Origin: Escherichia phage vB_EcoM_SP1
Length of the DNA: 64,000 nt
Strand: one strand, 5' to 3'
Sequence record: MT682709.1
Below are positions 4,309 to 9,169 of this stretch, piece after piece (positions within the stretch are counted from its first letter, which is position 1; each line of letters starts with the position of its first letter). A model generated the notes under the pieces. The model did no database searches. It saw only the letters and a list, made by a program, of their open reading frames with translations, and was not told where the DNA came from. The translations under genes and the position numbers were made by a program.

Positions 4309-4339
4309 GTTTACACAGGCTCATGATTGAGATATTATG
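4309..4339 (+). promoter_or_regulatory. T4-type early promoter
   Basis: GTTTAC 4309-4314, TATTAT 4334-4339. Confidence 0.5.
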
Positions 4340-4699: not shown

Positions 4700-4730
4700 G
4701 TTTACAATCTATTAGAAACGTGATATTATT
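4700..4730 (+). promoter_or_regulatory. T4-type early promoter
   Basis: GTTTAC 4700-4705, GATATTATT -10 region. Confidence 0.5.
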
Positions 4731-4756
4731 TAATTATATCAACCTAAGGAAATACT

Positions 4757-5350
4757 ATGAACACACTGAAGAAAATTGTTGAGTTTATTCGCACTAAACT
4801 TGGTTCTGCTATGGCTAAAAATCTATCTGTTGAAGAACAGTATACTGCTGCAGCAGCAAAACTGCTTGATAAAATTAAAGATCTAAAAACTGCTTCTATT
4901 AAATCTATTAATGAAGAAAAACGTATTCGTGAACTTGTTATCGAAAAGAATCGACAAGCCGAATCAAAAGAGCGTGAAATTCGCAAGCTTCTTTCCGAGG
5001 GTCAAGATGTAACAATGCATGCTAAACTCGGTTTGCTATATCGTCGAACAGCTGAACAGTTGACTACTAAGGCTGATGGTTATGCTGAAATGCGAATTGA
5101 AATCGCCAAGAAAGTAGTTGAGTTAGATGATGCTCGCCAAGAACTTGCAGTTAAATTGGAATATATCCGTGAAACTCGTGCGGCAAATGCCCTTGGAATT
5201 AGTACTGCTGATGATGTAGTTGAAATCGCAGCGCTAACTAAGGTTGATATTGAAGATACTCTTGCTCGAGTTGAAACCTTTAACGGTAATATTTCTGGGG
5301 TTGAAACCACTTCTGCTGATGTTCAGGAATATATTAATTCTCTGAAATAA
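4757..5350 (+). CDS. coiled-coil protein (197 aa)
   Basis: ATG with AAGGAAA RBS; heptad-rich, charged helical sequence; followed by a GGGGC-TTCG-GCCCC hairpin at 5357-5370. Confidence 0.6.
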
Positions 5351-5391
5351 TGATAAGGGGCTTCGGCCCCTATTACTTGGAGTAAATAGGA

Positions 5392-6000
5392 ATGAGAATG
5401 CAAAATGATTTCAATTCAATGTTTGAAGAGTTCCAAAGACAGGTTGATGTTCCAGACCAATTACTGAATGCTCTTAAACGTATGGCAGAAGGACGTAATT
5501 ACTATTGGGGGTCTTCATATGAAACTGATGAAAGTCTTTCTGGAAGATTTTATAGAGGTAAAAAGTCTTTAATACGCCCTGGAATACTCATTAAAAGTAT
5601 TGAATCAATTCATTCATTGACATGTGATTTTGATGTTGAATTTACTGATTTCATTTCTCCTGAATGGACAGTTTGTTATTTAAATGACGATTATGATTAT
5701 CTTGGCATTTATAGTTTAAGTGACGCGGGGTTTAGACGTAATTTACAAAAGTCAAATTTATTTTATATTGATACTACGGTAAAATTTCAGGGAAAGAAAT
5801 ATTTCTTTACTCTTATAGTTGACTCTGAAACAAAATATGAAAATAAGCGTATTCTTAGTAAAAAGAATATCTTGACTATTATTGATGATCTTTTTGATAA
5901 ATTCGTGGAAAATCCCAGTTTTGAAAGCGATTTATTACTAGAAAAATTTGTTAAGGAATGTAGAGAATATGTCAAAGCCATCACTATACCTTCCAAGTAA
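5392..6000 (+). CDS. hypothetical protein (202 aa), C-terminal motif KFVKECREY
   Basis: ATG 5392; shares its C-terminal motif with the next three genes. Confidence 0.6.
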   Translation: MRMQNDFNSMFEEFQRQVDVPDQLLNALKRMAEGRNYYWGSSYETDESLSGRFYRGKKSLIRPGILIKSIESIHSLTCDFDVEFTDFISPEWTVCYLNDDYDYLGIYSLSDAGFRRNLQKSNLFYIDTTVKFQGKKYFFTLIVDSETKYENKRILSKKNILTIIDDLFDKFVENPSFESDLLLEKFVKECREYVKAITIPSK

Positions 6001-6361
6001 ACCTTTGAAGTATGAACTAAAGCGCCAGATAATTTCTACCGATGTATTAATGGGTCCTGTGGTAGCTGTATCATTTGTGATTCTGCTGATTGCTGGAATG
6101 GTTATAGACGTTATGACTGATATTGAATCCGGTGTAATATTTGGAGCAACGTTAATTCTTCCATTAATAATTCCGCTTTTATTAGTACCTGTAAATTGGG
6201 TAGGATACTGGTATCAAGGAAGACATTATCGTAAACGTGTACGTGAATGGAAAGCTCAGTGTAAAAAGATTAAAAAGGAACACCAGCTTAAACTAGATAT
6301 GTATGAATTTAACGAAATTATGAAATTTGTTAAGGAATCACGATGCAAAAGCCAAAACTAA
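5969..6361 (+). CDS. membrane protein (130 aa), C-terminal motif KFVKESRCK
   Basis: ATG 5969 in track frame (track begins at TTG 5948); two predicted TM segments. Confidence 0.55.
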   Translation: MSKPSLYLPSKPLKYELKRQIISTDVLMGPVVAVSFVILLIAGMVIDVMTDIESGVIFGATLILPLIIPLLLVPVNWVGYWYQGRHYRKRVREWKAQCKKIKKEHQLKLDMYEFNEIMKFVKESRCKSQN

Positions 6362-6705
6362 ATAAAGTCAAATATTCGTTTCCCGAGGCACTATTAATTC
6401 TTGCCGTGTCAGTATTTGCAGCTCTTGCTGGTAGTCTTATTGGATTAATGATTGACTGTATTATTTTAAACATCGATGGTTCAGCAATTATAACAGAGGT
6501 TTGGAGTGAACTTCGTTTTACTATAGCGATTTCATTATTTTCATTCTTTGGTACCATGCTATATTTTCATTATGATAATTTTAAAATAAATTGGCAAAGA
6601 AAAAAGGATTACAAAATACAATTAAAAGAATATAATAACTACATGTCTTATATTGAAAATGAATCAATGAAAGAGTTTGTGAGTGATTGTAGGAAAATCA
6701 AATGA
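6343..6705 (+). CDS. membrane protein (120 aa), C-terminal motif KEFVSDCRKIK
   Basis: ATG 6343; TM segments; paralogous C-terminus. Confidence 0.55.
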   Translation: MQKPKLNKVKYSFPEALLILAVSVFAALAGSLIGLMIDCIILNIDGSAIITEVWSELRFTIAISLFSFFGTMLYFHYDNFKINWQRKKDYKIQLKEYNNYMSYIENESMKEFVSDCRKIK

Positions 6706-7190
6706 TTTTAAAAACTCGCTGGTATGATTTAGATGATGGGGATGATGGCATTCCAGTTGATAGAGTTGACTGGAATGGCTGTTCCGAAGATATGAAAAAT
6801 TTGTTGATTAGGGAGTTTAGAATGGGATATCAACCAGTTAAGCCATCTACTATAACAGACGATAAATTCGTGTGTATTCATAATGGTCGCGCTAAGTTAA
6901 CGAACGCTGATTGGTTCACAGATAAAATTATGATTCTGTGGTATATTATTAGTCTTCCTGTGACATCATTCGTATTTTACTTTTTTATAAAAAATCCAAT
7001 GGACAGAATAGGAGATTGGATTCTTTTAACCATACTTGTTAATATTTTTACAGCAGCAATATTATCTGGGATATGGTACACGTTCATTGAAATGCCATGG
7101 CGGCTACGCAGACAACAAAAGATTTTTGATGAAAAGAAATATACTCAAAATTTAAATAACTTTATCACCGAATGCAGGAAATTAAAATGA
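6702..7190 (+). CDS. membrane protein (162 aa), C-terminal motif NNFITECRKLK
   Basis: ATG 6702 overlapping previous stop; TM segments; paralogous C-terminus. Confidence 0.55.
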   Translation: MILKTRWYDLDDGDDGIPVDRVDWNGCSEDMKNLLIREFRMGYQPVKPSTITDDKFVCIHNGRAKLTNADWFTDKIMILWYIISLPVTSFVFYFFIKNPMDRIGDWILLTILVNIFTAAILSGIWYTFIEMPWRLRRQQKIFDEKKYTQNLNNFITECRKLK

Positions 7191-7627
7191 AAACATTATC
7201 AGCTGGTATTATCTTTATGACAGAAGATAAAGATTTATTCATGGGACGGGTTACTGGTTCTCGTAAGCCTGGAATGATGGCACATCGCTGGGATATTCCA
7301 AAGGGCCGTGTAGAAAATTCTGATTTGAGCGCACTAGATGCAGCACGAAGAGAATGCTTAGAAGAGACCGGTTTTAGCAATTATAATCCAGACCTTCTAG
7401 AAGACCTAGGTGTATTTAAATATTCTAGTAATAAAGACTTACAGCTGTTTTATTATACGATTCCAGTAGAGCATGAGATGTTTAGAAATTGCCATTGCGA
7501 GTCTTATTTTGAAAATAAAGATGGTGTTATGATTCCAGAGATGGATGCTTTTGCTCTTATTCCTCGTACTCAGTGGCAATATGTGATGGGTCCTTCACTT
7601 TATCGAATAATGAACAGCCTCTTTTAA
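7187..7627 (+). CDS. nudE: Nudix hydrolase NudE (e.1)
   Basis: Nudix box GRVENSDLSALDAARRECLEETGF; ATG 7187 with AGGAA RBS; immediately upstream of e as in T4. Confidence 0.85.
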   Translation: MKTLSAGIIFMTEDKDLFMGRVTGSRKPGMMAHRWDIPKGRVENSDLSALDAARRECLEETGFSNYNPDLLEDLGVFKYSSNKDLQLFYYTIPVEHEMFRNCHCESYFENKDGVMIPEMDAFALIPRTQWQYVMGPSLYRIMNSLF

Positions 7628-8430
<803 letters not shown>

Positions 8431-8908: not shown

Positions 8909-9169
8909 ATGAAAATGTATCAAGAATTTATCGCTGAAGCAGATGCCAAAGGCCCCAAATTTAAAGTTAAAGCTTTCGTTGGTGATGCAGAAGATTTTGG
9001 CTCATTAAAACGTAATGGGTATTCTTTCCTAGGCGGCGATGGTAGAGAAATAAACACCTATGCAAAACGTAGTGAAATTGCTTATGTTGTAGCAAGCCCT
9101 AAAGTAGATGTTGACGATATTGGATATGATTTTAACAACTTCGGAATTATTTCTGGCGGTAAAGCTTAA
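8909..9169 (+). CDS. internal-protein-like (leader MKMYQEFIAEA), 86 aa
   Basis: ATG with AAGGAAAA RBS; IP-type leader. Confidence 0.65.
   Translation: MKMYQEFIAEADAKGPKFKVKAFVGDAEDFGSLKRNGYSFLGGDGREINTYAKRSEIAYVVASPKVDVDDIGYDFNNFGIISGGKA

Follow-up and report, generated by a model that had tools for sequence, protein, structure and literature searches.

A conserved C-terminal helix on the e.5, e.4, e.3 and e.2 products of a T4-type phage: selection on the peptide and its possible role in docking

Introduction

Upstream of nudE and the lysozyme gene e of Escherichia phage vB_EcoM_SP1, four consecutive small genes encode proteins with a similar short peptide at or close to their C-termini, which raises the question of whether the four genes are copies of each other or whether only the peptide is common to them, and what such a peptide could be for. 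The genes are located in a stretch of 64,000 nucleotides (sequence record MT682709.1) that was analyzed as a whole, called here the window, and all positions given are those of the window. From gene names and gene order they were identified as the e.5-e.4-e.3-e.2 block of T4-type phages (Tequatrovirus). Around half of the T4 genes are without an assigned function, among them e.2 to e.6, despite their expression in every infection. In T4, the RNAs of e.2 to e.6 are classed as early and all five proteins have been detected (PMC9697503, supplementary files 4 and 6). The literature found on these genes was limited to this expression table, and in the papers searched neither a paralogy of e.3 and e.4 nor a common tail was described.

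Results

Organization of the locus

Between positions 4700 and 8200 the window shows 94-97% DNA identity to related Tequatrovirus records. The genes and other elements of the region are the following:

4757..5350, + strand: e.6 (named after T4), 197 amino acids, highly conserved, always precedes the motif-bearing block
5356..5371, + strand: GGGGC-TTCG-GCCCC hairpin between e.6 and e.5
5392..6000, + strand: e.5 orthologue, 202 amino acids, soluble; the final 32 nt overlap e.4
5969..6361, + strand: e.4 orthologue, 130 amino acids; N-in/C-in hairpin with transmembrane segments at around 28-49 and 56-78 and a basic tail of 52 residues
6343..6705, + strand: e.3 orthologue, 120 amino acids; first transmembrane segment in helix 13-42, the second one in helix 58-119, where it runs into a cytoplasmic helix
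6702..7190, + strand: e.2x, the full-length e.2 type gene, 162 amino acids; cytoplasmic N-domain of 75 residues, hairpin at around 76-96 and 106-128, and tail
7187..7627, + strand: nudE, Nudix hydrolase (Pfam NUDIX, E = 1e-13), last of the overlapping series; an alternative annotated start is at 7172
7664..8152, + strand: e, T4-type lysozyme, context gene

The four reading frames of the block, their strand and their translations agree with the initial annotation, which had also placed them just upstream of nudE and e; both genes indeed follow directly. The successive overlaps e.5/e.4, e.4/e.3, e.3/e.2x and e.2x/nudE are of 32, 19, 4 and 4 nt, and this start-to-stop overlap of five genes suggests translational coupling. 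For the palindrome at 5356..5371, a terminator scan reports a terminator-like site on the - strand. The e.2 gene of the T4 reference, annotated with 102 amino acids, is the e.2x gene with two compensating frameshifts, the form in the window being intact.

The e.6 protein is 98% identical to that of T4, 88% to that of Mosigvirus and 74% to that of Dhakavirus, with 60-65% at more distant loci, and has a dN/dS of 0.04 in the Tequatrovirus set. No Pfam match was found for it, and a PDB search with its profile gave nothing at E < 0.1. A relationship to PspA/IM30 was rejected, as E. coli PspA matched the e.6 alignment in hhalign with a probability of 0.2%.

A common motif in the four tails

The four products share the pattern [L/M/I]-x-x-F-[I/V]-x-x-C-[R/K], located no more than 11 residues before the stop, the exception being e.4, which reads S-R-C. 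Extended to around 10 residues, [L/M/I]-x-x-F-[I/V]-x-x-C-[R/K]-[K/R/E], it corresponds to an amphipathic helix common to all of them. A matrix of 10 residues was built from other genera only and scored on the 69,040 stop-free peptides in the window, with these results:

5938..5967, + strand: e.5 tail motif LEKFVKECRE (F186, C190, R191), 21.7 bits, rank 2 of 69,040
6317..6346, + strand: e.4 tail motif IMKFVKESRC, 11.9 bits, rank 4 of 69,040
6667..6696, + strand: e.3 tail motif MKEFVSDCRK, 6.8 bits, rank 19 of 69,040
7152..7181, + strand: e.2x tail motif LNNFITECRK, 23.0 bits, rank 1 of 69,040

The possibility raised in the initial annotation that the motif is no better than background is therefore contradicted by these ranks. 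Its statement that the products end in the shared peptides was right about the presence of the motif in all four and inexact for e.5 and e.4, where KFVKECREY is followed by VKAITIPSK and KFVKESRCK by SQN. Translated in six frames, the 64 kb window contains the strict form F[IV]..CR 6 times, against a mean of 1.8 in shuffles, and in the long reading frames of the window it is found only in e.5, e.3 and e.2x, each time at most 11 residues from the stop. The same kind of matrix scan over T4 72-169 kb gave zero matches in real genes.

Topology and structure

Topology prediction gave two hydrophobic helices each for e.4, e.3 and e.2x (Kyte-Doolittle peaks of 2.0-2.7), in agreement with their earlier description as multi-pass membrane proteins, and no transmembrane peak was detected in e.5 on this scale. 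By the positive-inside rule, the proposed cytoplasmic location of the motif is clear for e.4 and e.3, with 5/0/15 and 4/0/10 Lys plus Arg residues in N-terminus/loop/tail, and weaker for e.2x, where 2 in the loop and 9 in the tail make the assignment of both termini to the cytoplasm less clear. The layout of e.2x is that of e.3 and e.4 with an N-terminal cytoplasmic domain added.

A model of e.3 (AlphaFold2, alignment A3) had a mean pLDDT of 86.5 and shows the second transmembrane segment and the tail as one single helix (residues 58-119) that extends around 40 residues into the cytoplasm. When the PDB was searched with this model by Foldseek, the top match had E = 0.1 (TolQ/ExbB, TM 0.3) and is a generic hairpin, not a meaningful match. 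For e.5, the AlphaFold2 model from the single sequence had a pLDDT of 39.6 and was discarded. In the tail helix, L/M(-3), F(0) and C(+4) are on one face with I/V(+1) alongside, and the hydrophobic periodicity is not that of a clean heptad.

Relationships among the four proteins

The PHROGs collection assigns the four proteins to four separate families, with matches of e.5 to 2607 (E = 1e-107, residues 1-202), e.4 to 2604 (E = 2e-70, residues 1-130), e.3 to 2330 (E = 1e-57, residues 1-118) and e.2x to 2203 (E = 4e-79), all of them unannotated. No significant match to Pfam or NCBIfam was found for the four proteins or e.6; the precomputed Pfam labels are PF26873 for e.4 (on 99 homologues) and PF26896 for e.2x. 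Neither e.5 alone nor its 8-member profile matched anything in the PDB at E < 0.1, Pfam gave nothing on any of the e.5 orthologues, and PADLOC defence models gave no match at E ≤ 0.1 for the four proteins. The e.3 protein is 80% identical to that of T4 record KJ477686 (tblastn).

When enriched profiles of e.3 and e.4 were compared by hhalign, they aligned over 109 columns with P = 8.7e-10 and 96.5% probability, and after removal of the motif the similarity persisted (P = 1e-5; reversed control 16.8 vs 57.8). On these profile comparisons, e.4 and e.3 are paralogues by tandem duplication, the only pair demonstrable among the four. With the motif removed, e.2x gave scores of 12.6-13.6 against e.3 or e.4, under the 22.7-25.4 of the reversed controls, and e.5 belongs to a different family and aligns to the others over 10-22 tail columns only. 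Such tail columns are all that the cross-family profile alignments cover (P from 1e-5 to 6e-3; reversed controls of two pairs, 0.47 and 0.6). The tandemly duplicated membrane family seen in the initial annotation is thus reduced to e.3 and e.4: e.2x shares the tail only, and e.5 is not a membrane protein of that family.

In Dhaka-, Gapriver- and Kanagawavirus the e.2-type gene adjoins nudE, around 10 genes away from e.3, so that the row of four is specific to Tequatrovirus and not a single series of duplications. Around 500 Tequatrovirus genomes contain the block. In other genera the motif is found on further unrelated small proteins, several of them soluble, of 94-116 amino acids. A profile of e.3 plus e.4 searched against 1.84 billion representative proteins gave 10 matches, all of them the same T-even genes or fragments, and therefore the e.3/e.4 family is confined to this phage group.

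Conservation of the tail as a peptide

A comparison across T4-like genomes had been proposed with the initial annotation, and in it the motif was found to be kept by selection in at least eight lineages. Across eight genome groups, its Arg is encoded by AGA, AGG, CGT, CGC, CGA and CGG, its Cys by TGT and TGC, and its Phe by TTT and TTC. As Arg uses all six of its codons, and Cys and Phe both of theirs, the motif is selected as protein.

Among 8 orthologues of the e.5 family with 18-49% identity, the only invariant residues are M1, N98, F186, C190 and R191. In 12 diverse sequences of e.3, F112 is invariant and C116 nearly so, and in e.2x orthologues of 30-91% identity F154, I155, C158 and R159 are invariant. 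For e.3, e.4 and e.2x, the short list of invariant residues includes F together with R or C. The Cys position is S in the e.4 of the window and I, V or M in the e.4 of other genera; V, I, M, A or S stand in for it across the e.4 lineage and in certain other members with F and R retained.

Within Tequatrovirus, where the dN/dS figures rest on 6-8 genomes, the transmembrane hairpins have values of 0.43-0.73, and the juxtamembrane segments and the e.2x tail of 0.03-0.07, compared with 0.10-0.11 for nudE and e. In the same comparison the helix of the e.5 motif has dN = 0 with dS = 0.13. The e.3 and e.4 tails taken as whole segments are at 0.32-0.38, their conservation being concentrated in three or four core residues. 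The description of the family as diversifying is correct in that the hairpins evolve fast, and does not extend to positive selection because dN/dS stays below 1. Judged from these comparisons, purifying selection on the protein maintains the tail helix while its surroundings diverge.

Repeats at the gene junctions

The DNA that encodes the tails is itself repeated at the junctions:

5944..5959, + strand: AAATTTGTTAAGGAAT, 16 nt, encodes K-F-V-K-E and holds the AAGGA Shine-Dalgarno of e.4
6323..6338, + strand: second identical copy of the same 16 nt, in the e.4 tail and the e.3 ribosome-binding site
6688..6705, + strand: TGTAGGAAAATCAAATGA, encodes C-R-K-I-K-stop, where e.2x has its Shine-Dalgarno (AGGAAA) and its ATGA start/stop overlap
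7173..7190, + strand: TGCAGGAAATTAAAATGA, e.2x/nudE junction, matches 6688..6705 at 15/18 bases

At locus L010, e.2x was removed exactly by a crossover in TGYAGGAAA, between the copies at the e.3/e.2x and e.2x/nudE junctions. The same deletion was inferred in other phages, whose matches run precisely up to the stop codon of e.3, and T2 has e.3 directly against nudE. Rearranged forms were also found, namely an in-frame e.4::e.2x fusion (P0099), an e.4 that lacks the hairpin (P0196) and an e.3/e.4 chimera (P0200). As the tails also encode the next Shine-Dalgarno and start codon, the junctions are breakpoints for the deletion and fusion of cassettes.

Discussion

We tentatively favor, as a possibility somewhat short of probable, that the tail serves as a short helix for docking or assembly, located at the inner membrane on its cytoplasmic face. 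It would bundle the four products together, tethering the soluble e.5 to the membrane proteins, or alternatively would plug each product into one common partner, for which the conserved upstream e.6 or a host protein are candidates. The Cys would then contribute to the L/F/I face of the helix as a residue that is small and hydrophobic, and not as a catalytic or metal-binding one. Some observations count against docking. Taken whole, the e.3 and e.4 tails are under moderate constraint only, and the tails do not have a clean heptad periodicity. Tails from the same genome do not resemble each other more than tails from different genomes (p = 0.34; position +3 alone p = 0.05, uncorrected), so there is no signal of co-evolution. 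The very strong retention of Cys in e.5, e.3 and e.2x would suit a chemical role as well.

A more far-reaching version, rather doubtful at present, is that the tail is an address tag carried by at least six early proteins of the variable e-segB region of Tevenvirinae, both membrane proteins and soluble ones, unrelated to each other, and that it connects them all to a single hub, either e.6 or a host protein, on the cytoplasmic side of the inner membrane. If this were true, the tail would parallel the capsid-targeting sequence, at the C-terminus and in the early phase, and the overlap of tag and ribosome-binding site would make the cassettes exchangeable in frame.

The tail could instead be an anchor to the membrane surface, in the manner of the C-terminal membrane-targeting helices of MinD and FtsA, a basic amphipathic segment lying on the inner leaflet or capping its own last helix without any common partner. 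The helix is amphipathic and followed by R/K, the soluble e.5 bears it, and the other bearers in the window are membrane proteins. We consider an anchor unlikely, given that the coliphage genera have an acidic residue inside the motif (K-E, S-D, T-E or E-E), unfavorable for anionic lipids, that the e.3 model puts the motif at the far end of a straight helix, around 40 residues from the membrane, and that small soluble proteins of other genera bear it too.

Recombination could also explain the similarity of the tails, if unequal crossing-over and gene conversion copied them from gene to gene as a linker, the peptide having no specific function. The identical 16 nt at the e.5/e.4 and e.4/e.3 junctions, the 15/18 match between e.3/e.2x and e.2x/nudE, the exact deletion in L010 and the forms P0099, P0196 and P0200 are what such a process would leave. 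Against this, the DNA of the motif is wholly turned over between genera while the residues are unchanged, non-adjacent genes bear it (e.g., Dhakavirus e.2x, around 10 genes from e.3), and within locus L023 the Gln, Cys and Arg codons differ among tails. Recombination at the junctions seems to result from the repeats rather than to be what retains the peptide, and as an explanation of the tails we find it quite improbable.

Little credence is given to the tail as an address or turnover signal, either a degron that times the early proteins or a site for the T4 prohead protease gp21, which recognizes Leu/Ile-x-Glu. Tails of coliphage genera mostly have [I/V]-x-E before the Cys (V-S-D in the e.3 of the window), and a short terminal peptide on unrelated proteins has a parallel in the MKTYQEFIAE at the N-terminus of internal proteins. 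However, lineages further away have Q, H, Y, S, D or N in place of the Glu, and on the motif matrix the targeting peptides of internal proteins reach 1.0 and -3.3 bits; on these grounds a resemblance to those peptides or to the gp21 site was rejected. In addition, early proteins of the cytoplasmic membrane would be unlikely substrates of a prohead-confined protease.

A chemical role of the Cys-Arg pair, as a reactive, metal-binding or modified site (a Zn site made of four tails, a thiol switch or a 'sulfurtransferase'), appears very unlikely to us. In its favor, each of the four co-expressed proteins has a single Cys of this kind, all e.5 and e.2x orthologues and nearly all of e.3 retain it, and homologues of e.3 and e.4 appear under the name 'sulfurtransferase' in certain NCBI records. 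However, S, I, V, M or A take its place in the e.4 lineage and in others that keep F and R, and the predicted fold of the e.3 model is a helical hairpin plus a helix. A rhodanese or sulfurtransferase was rejected on that fold and on the lack of such or any other enzyme domain in Pfam or NCBIfam at E ≤ 1.

The peptide could finally be a by-product of translational coupling, its residues being dictated by the Shine-Dalgarno and ATGA overlap of the next gene (AAG GAA for K-E, AGG AAA for R-K, AAA TGA for K-stop). In the window and most related loci the motif does overlap the downstream ribosome-binding site, and AGGAAA..AAATGA specifies nearly all of the R-K-[I/L]-K-stop with which e.3 and e.2x end. 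Nevertheless, four of the six Arg codons in use are without AGG, and F, I/V and C are not part of the Shine-Dalgarno, which is placed differently with respect to the Cys from gene to gene: AAGGAA or GAGGAA lies over K-E or E-E, and AGGAAA over R-K. The motif is also retained at loci without the overlap, with the next start codon 25-30 nt away (Dhakavirus e.5, L029 7618 and L014 8622), and no other gene junction in 161 kb of T4-type sequence yields the peptide. The codon data largely refute this explanation, most improbable for the tail as a whole, and leave it part of the K-E and R-K positions only.

A role in lysis, as holin- or antiholin-like proteins encoded just before the endolysin, is hardly credible: these are small N-in/C-in two-helix proteins with charged C-termini beside e, but no PHROG holin family matches at E ≤ 1, they are transcribed early, e.4 and e.3 lie away from e in other genera, and T4 lysis depends on t, whose mutants do not lyse.

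The stakes of a docking helix would be moderate, a lead on orphan phage genes rather than a new mechanism. The motif offers an experimental handle, a 10-residue peptide with three residues (F, C and R) to work on, and joins orphan families into one functional group.

Comparison with known systems

The T4 genes e.5, e.4, e.3 and e.2 are the orthologues of the four genes, in the same order upstream of nudE and e (PHROG E values from 1e-57 to 1e-107). In T4, e.2-e.4 are annotated as predicted membrane proteins, conserved and hypothetical, and the database entries have no function and belong to four unrelated families.

Class II holins and T4 Imm-type exclusion proteins are similar in size, in the N-in/C-in hairpin and in the charged cytoplasmic C-terminus, Imm being compared by description only. 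In contrast to them, the genes studied here are early and do not match PHROGs annotated as such, and to our knowledge an F-x-x-x-C-R tail is not a feature of either family.

A closer likeness in kind is the capsid-targeting sequence of T4 internal proteins, also one short terminal peptide on several unrelated, neighboring scaffolds, which are encoded in the same variable region. The window itself contains ipII/ipIII-type genes at 8909 and 9233, whose products start with MK[M/T]YQEFIAE. That peptide is N-terminal, is carried by virion proteins and is cut off by the prohead protease, whereas the motif described here is C-terminal, is borne by early proteins of the cytoplasm or the membrane, and does not resemble it in sequence.

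The gene-boundary cassettes of T4-type phages reportedly consist of non-coding promoter and stem-loop elements; the repeat in the e.5-e.2 block differs in that it is coding and the peptide itself is selected. Modular shuffling at such conserved cassettes has been described for T4-type genomes, with short boundary repeats that coincide with the end-points of insertions, deletions and replacements (Arbiol et al. 2010, PMC2839356), as they do here with the exact deletion of e.2x and the in-frame fusions. A coding repeat fused to a ribosome-binding site can in this way provide a junction for the in-frame gain, loss and fusion of accessory genes.

The e.5-nudE gene block

The phage is a Tequatrovirus, and the region 4700-8200 shows 94-97% identity to many T4-like coliphages. 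Gene names were assigned from annotated records and the T4 reference, and the block is organized as follows.

Genes of the block
4757-5350: e.6, 197 aa
5392-6000: e.5, 202 aa
5969-6361: e.4, 130 aa
6343-6705: e.3, 120 aa
6702-7190: full-length e.2 type gene (e.2x), 162 aa
7187-7627 (annotated start 7172): nudE, Nudix hydrolase
7664-8152: e, lysozyme

Successive genes from e.5 to nudE overlap by 32, 19, 4 and 4 nt, in such a way that they form a tightly overlapping early operon, and from these overlaps we infer translational coupling across it. In T4, the e.2-e.6 RNAs belong to the early class, and each of the five products has been seen by mass spectrometry (PMC9697503, supplementary files 4 and 6). 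The 32 nt at 5969-6000 are dual-coding (e.5 end YVKAITIPSK, e.4 start MSKPSLYLPSK), as are the 19 nt at 6343-6361 (e.4 end RCKSQN, e.3 start MQKPKL), and both e.4 and e.3 start with ATG-nnA-AAG-CCA (M-x-K-P). A GGGGC-TTCG-GCCCC tetraloop hairpin is found at 5356-5371, between e.6 and e.5, and early-type promoter-like sites at 4310-4338 (upstream of e.7) and 4701-4729 (upstream of e.6). The annotated ATG of nudE at 7172 (MQEIKMKT...) lacks a Shine-Dalgarno sequence and lies inside the e.2x tail; the ATG at 7187 follows AGGAAA at a distance of 5 nt, is part of an ATGA overlap, and aligns with the nudE N-termini of other genera. The real product is probably this shorter 146-aa form.

The e.2 gene of the T4 reference (102 aa; locus L002, NC_000866 67475-67960, matching 6702-7190 here) is an e.2x gene in which an A7 run carries a -1 frameshift that a +1 shift 80 nt downstream compensates, so that the NNFITECRKLK tail is retained in its original frame. 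It is either a laboratory-strain pseudogene or an old sequencing error; its protein was nevertheless seen by proteomics (PMC9697503).

A common motif at the C-terminal tails

The four tails read as in the initial annotation, apart from two small corrections, and can be described as [L/M/I]-x-x-F-[I/V]-x-x-C-[R/K]. The motif is near the end of all four proteins, although 9 residues follow it in e.5 and 3 in e.4, and the proposed Cys-Arg pair is present in e.5, e.3 and e.2x but reads S-R-C in e.4. Its occurrence is beyond chance: among the long ORFs in the 64 kb window, F[IV]..CR is confined to e.5, e.3 and e.2x, where it lies at most 11 residues from the stop, and by a 10-residue scoring matrix derived solely from tails of other genera the four tails rank 1st, 2nd, 4th and 19th among 69,040 window peptides. 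A matrix scan of T4 from 72 to 169 kb found no real gene scoring.

The e.4, e.3 and e.2x products were correctly described as membrane proteins, with two strong hydrophobic helices in each. Counts of K+R in N-terminus, loop and tail (5, 0 and 15 in e.4; 4, 0 and 10 in e.3; 11, 2 and 9 in e.2x) point to an N-in/C-in topology with a basic tail on the cytoplasmic side, as had been suggested, with e.2x less clear-cut than the other two.

The motif core is present in orthologues otherwise only 14-50% identical.

Tails in other lineages
Mosigvirus, e.5: QFIMECREY
Mosigvirus, e.4: EFVKEIRCKS
Mosigvirus, e.3: NFIKECRK-stop
Dhakavirus, e.5 type: RFIAECREY
Dhakavirus, e.3 type: IFIKECKS-stop
Dhakavirus, e.2 type: EFIEECRK-stop
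Gaprivervirus, e.2: SFIEECRK-stop
Kanagawavirus, e.2 type: NFIKGCRDGSN-stop
More distant Tevenvirinae, various genes: FIKHCR, FIKYCR, FVDQCR, FVESCR, FIDDCR

Across eight aligned e.5 orthologues only M1, N98, F186, C190 and R191 never vary, and F plus R or C are among the few invariant positions in e.3, e.4 and e.2x. The motif is also found on further unrelated small soluble proteins (94-116 aa) of other genera and on a Mosigvirus 101-aa two-helix protein. The e.3/e.4 family itself, judged by profile search, is otherwise very narrow: the joint profile drew only 10 matches (E <= 0.001) from 1.84 billion representative proteins, every one a T-even phage gene or a fragment of one.

A second C-terminal motif, W-[V/I]-S-S-S-x-x-C-stop (for example AWVSSSALC, GWVASSHTC, FWFNSSMSC, KIWYPSSC), ends all products of a tandem run of 3-4 small genes (65-105 aa) that immediately follows e.3 in Mosig-, Dhaka- and Gapriver-like phages and more distant Tevenvirinae (compared loci L004, 3906-4700; L009, 3351-4593; L014, 6200-6994; L015-L028, about 6000-7650). 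This family is absent from the window.

The motif core is constrained as protein

Every tail overlaps the following gene's Shine-Dalgarno sequence and start codon, with AAGGAA/GAGGAA encoding K-E/E-E, AGGAAA encoding R-K, and the ATGA overlap supplying the final K and the stop, an arrangement that probably shapes those polar positions. That the tail is a by-product of translational coupling alone is largely excluded by the codon data. Across lineages all six Arg codons and both codons of Cys and of Phe are used; the Shine-Dalgarno sequence precedes the Cys in some genes and follows it in others; the motif is retained where 25-30 nt lie before the next start codon; and the same peptide occurs at no other gene junction in ~161 kb of T4-type sequence. 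Ribosome-binding overlap therefore cannot explain the motif core. On these sequence comparisons, the amphipathic motif is kept by selection on the protein, on at least four scaffolds here (e.3 and e.4 being paralogues) and on more elsewhere.

One tandem duplication with fast-evolving hairpins

Profiles enriched with sequences of other genera were compared. The match between e.3 and e.4 (P=8.7e-10, probability 96.5%, score 57.8, 109 columns; reversed control 16.8, column shuffles <=14.3) persisted without the motif (P=1e-5), and both proteins start with M-x-K-P-x-L; they are therefore paralogues from one real tandem duplication. The tandem family proposed in the initial annotation thus holds for this pair, but e.2x and e.5 align by the tail only: e.4 against e.2x gave P=4e-5 with the motif and, without it, a score of 12.6, below the reversed control (22.7), in such a way that detectable similarity of e.2x to the others is restricted to the tail, and alignments of e.5 are confined to 10-22 tail columns. 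PHROGs places the four proteins in four separate families. The e.2 type gene adjoins nudE in Dhakavirus, around 10 genes from e.3, and also in Gaprivervirus, and in Kanagawavirus the frame starting just after it is nudE-like, although unannotated; the four-in-a-row order is therefore particular to Tequatrovirus.

Evolutionary rates in Tequatrovirus (dN/dS, pooled Nei-Gojobori estimates, 6-8 genomes)
e.4 hairpin: 0.67
e.3 hairpin: 0.43
e.2x hairpin: 0.73
e.4 and e.3 juxtamembrane segments, e.2x tail: 0.03-0.07
e.5 motif helix: dN = 0, dS = 0.13
e.4 and e.3 distal tails: 0.32-0.38
e.6: 0.04
nudE, e: 0.10-0.11

Per-column entropy was highest in the periplasmic loop, and with these ratios the hairpins evolve fast; as to the claimed diversification, positive selection is unsupported. 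Conservation within the block is strongest for e.6, with 60-98% identity over all sampled lineages, where it is always upstream of an e.5 type gene.

Recombination at the repeated junctions

An identical 16-nt stretch is found at the e.5/e.4 and e.4/e.3 junctions, and 15 of 18 bases agree between the e.3/e.2x junction and that of e.2x with nudE. Comparison of phages reveals recombination at these repeats. One locus (L010) lacks e.2x through a crossover within TGYAGGAAA, which left the body of e.3 joined to the ending of e.2x; in several phages the match to the query goes no further than the e.3 stop, and in T2 e.3 abuts nudE. Among database proteins, P0099 (phage UFV05; five contigs) is an in-frame e.4(1-31)::e.2x(87-162) fusion, whose joint falls at a TCCTGTG microhomology as read by eye in the window sequence rather than in UFV05 DNA; P0196 is an e.4 without hairpin, and P0200 a Mosigvirus e.3/e.4 tail chimera.

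Possible role of the tail

AlphaFold2 on the e.3/e.4 alignment (pLDDT 86.5) predicted for e.3 a first transmembrane helix at 13-42, a short loop and a single helix at 58-119, in which the second transmembrane segment would continue straight to the C-terminus. Foldseek with this model gave nothing significant, and a model of e.5 built from its sequence alone could not be used. On a helical wheel, counting from F(0), L/M(-3), F(0) and C(+4) share one face, with I/V(+1) adjacent and R/K after.

Tentatively, and with somewhat less than even confidence, we propose that the tail helix serves docking or assembly at the cytoplasmic face of the inner membrane. It would either bundle the co-translated products together or attach them to one partner, for which e.6 or a host protein is a candidate. 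Within-genome tail co-variation was not significant. An explanation based on cysteine chemistry is weakened by the e.4 lineage and certain other members, which keep F and R but have S, I, V, M or A in place of the Cys; such exchanges agree better with packing than with catalysis or metal binding. Further alternatives to the docking helix are a lipid-surface anchor, a degron or sorting signal, a holin-like role and functionless concerted evolution.

Pfam, NCBIfam, PADLOC and PHROGs gave no functional annotation for these proteins, and PDB sequence searches with e.5 and e.6 found no relatives of solved structure. e.6 has no match in Pfam either, and a PspA-like nature was discarded for lack of detectable similarity. 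Several GenBank/RefSeq records name e.3/e.4 homologues 'sulfurtransferase', and others 'DNA primase' or 'host specificity protein'; the domain searches in Pfam and NCBIfam support none of these names. Apart from genome annotation and one expression table, the literature searched contains nothing about these genes. The four genes were already on record as T4 orphans. Three points appear new: that e.3 and e.4 are paralogues, that a selected tail motif links several of the orphan families, and that this motif acts both as a coding repeat and as a recombination junction.
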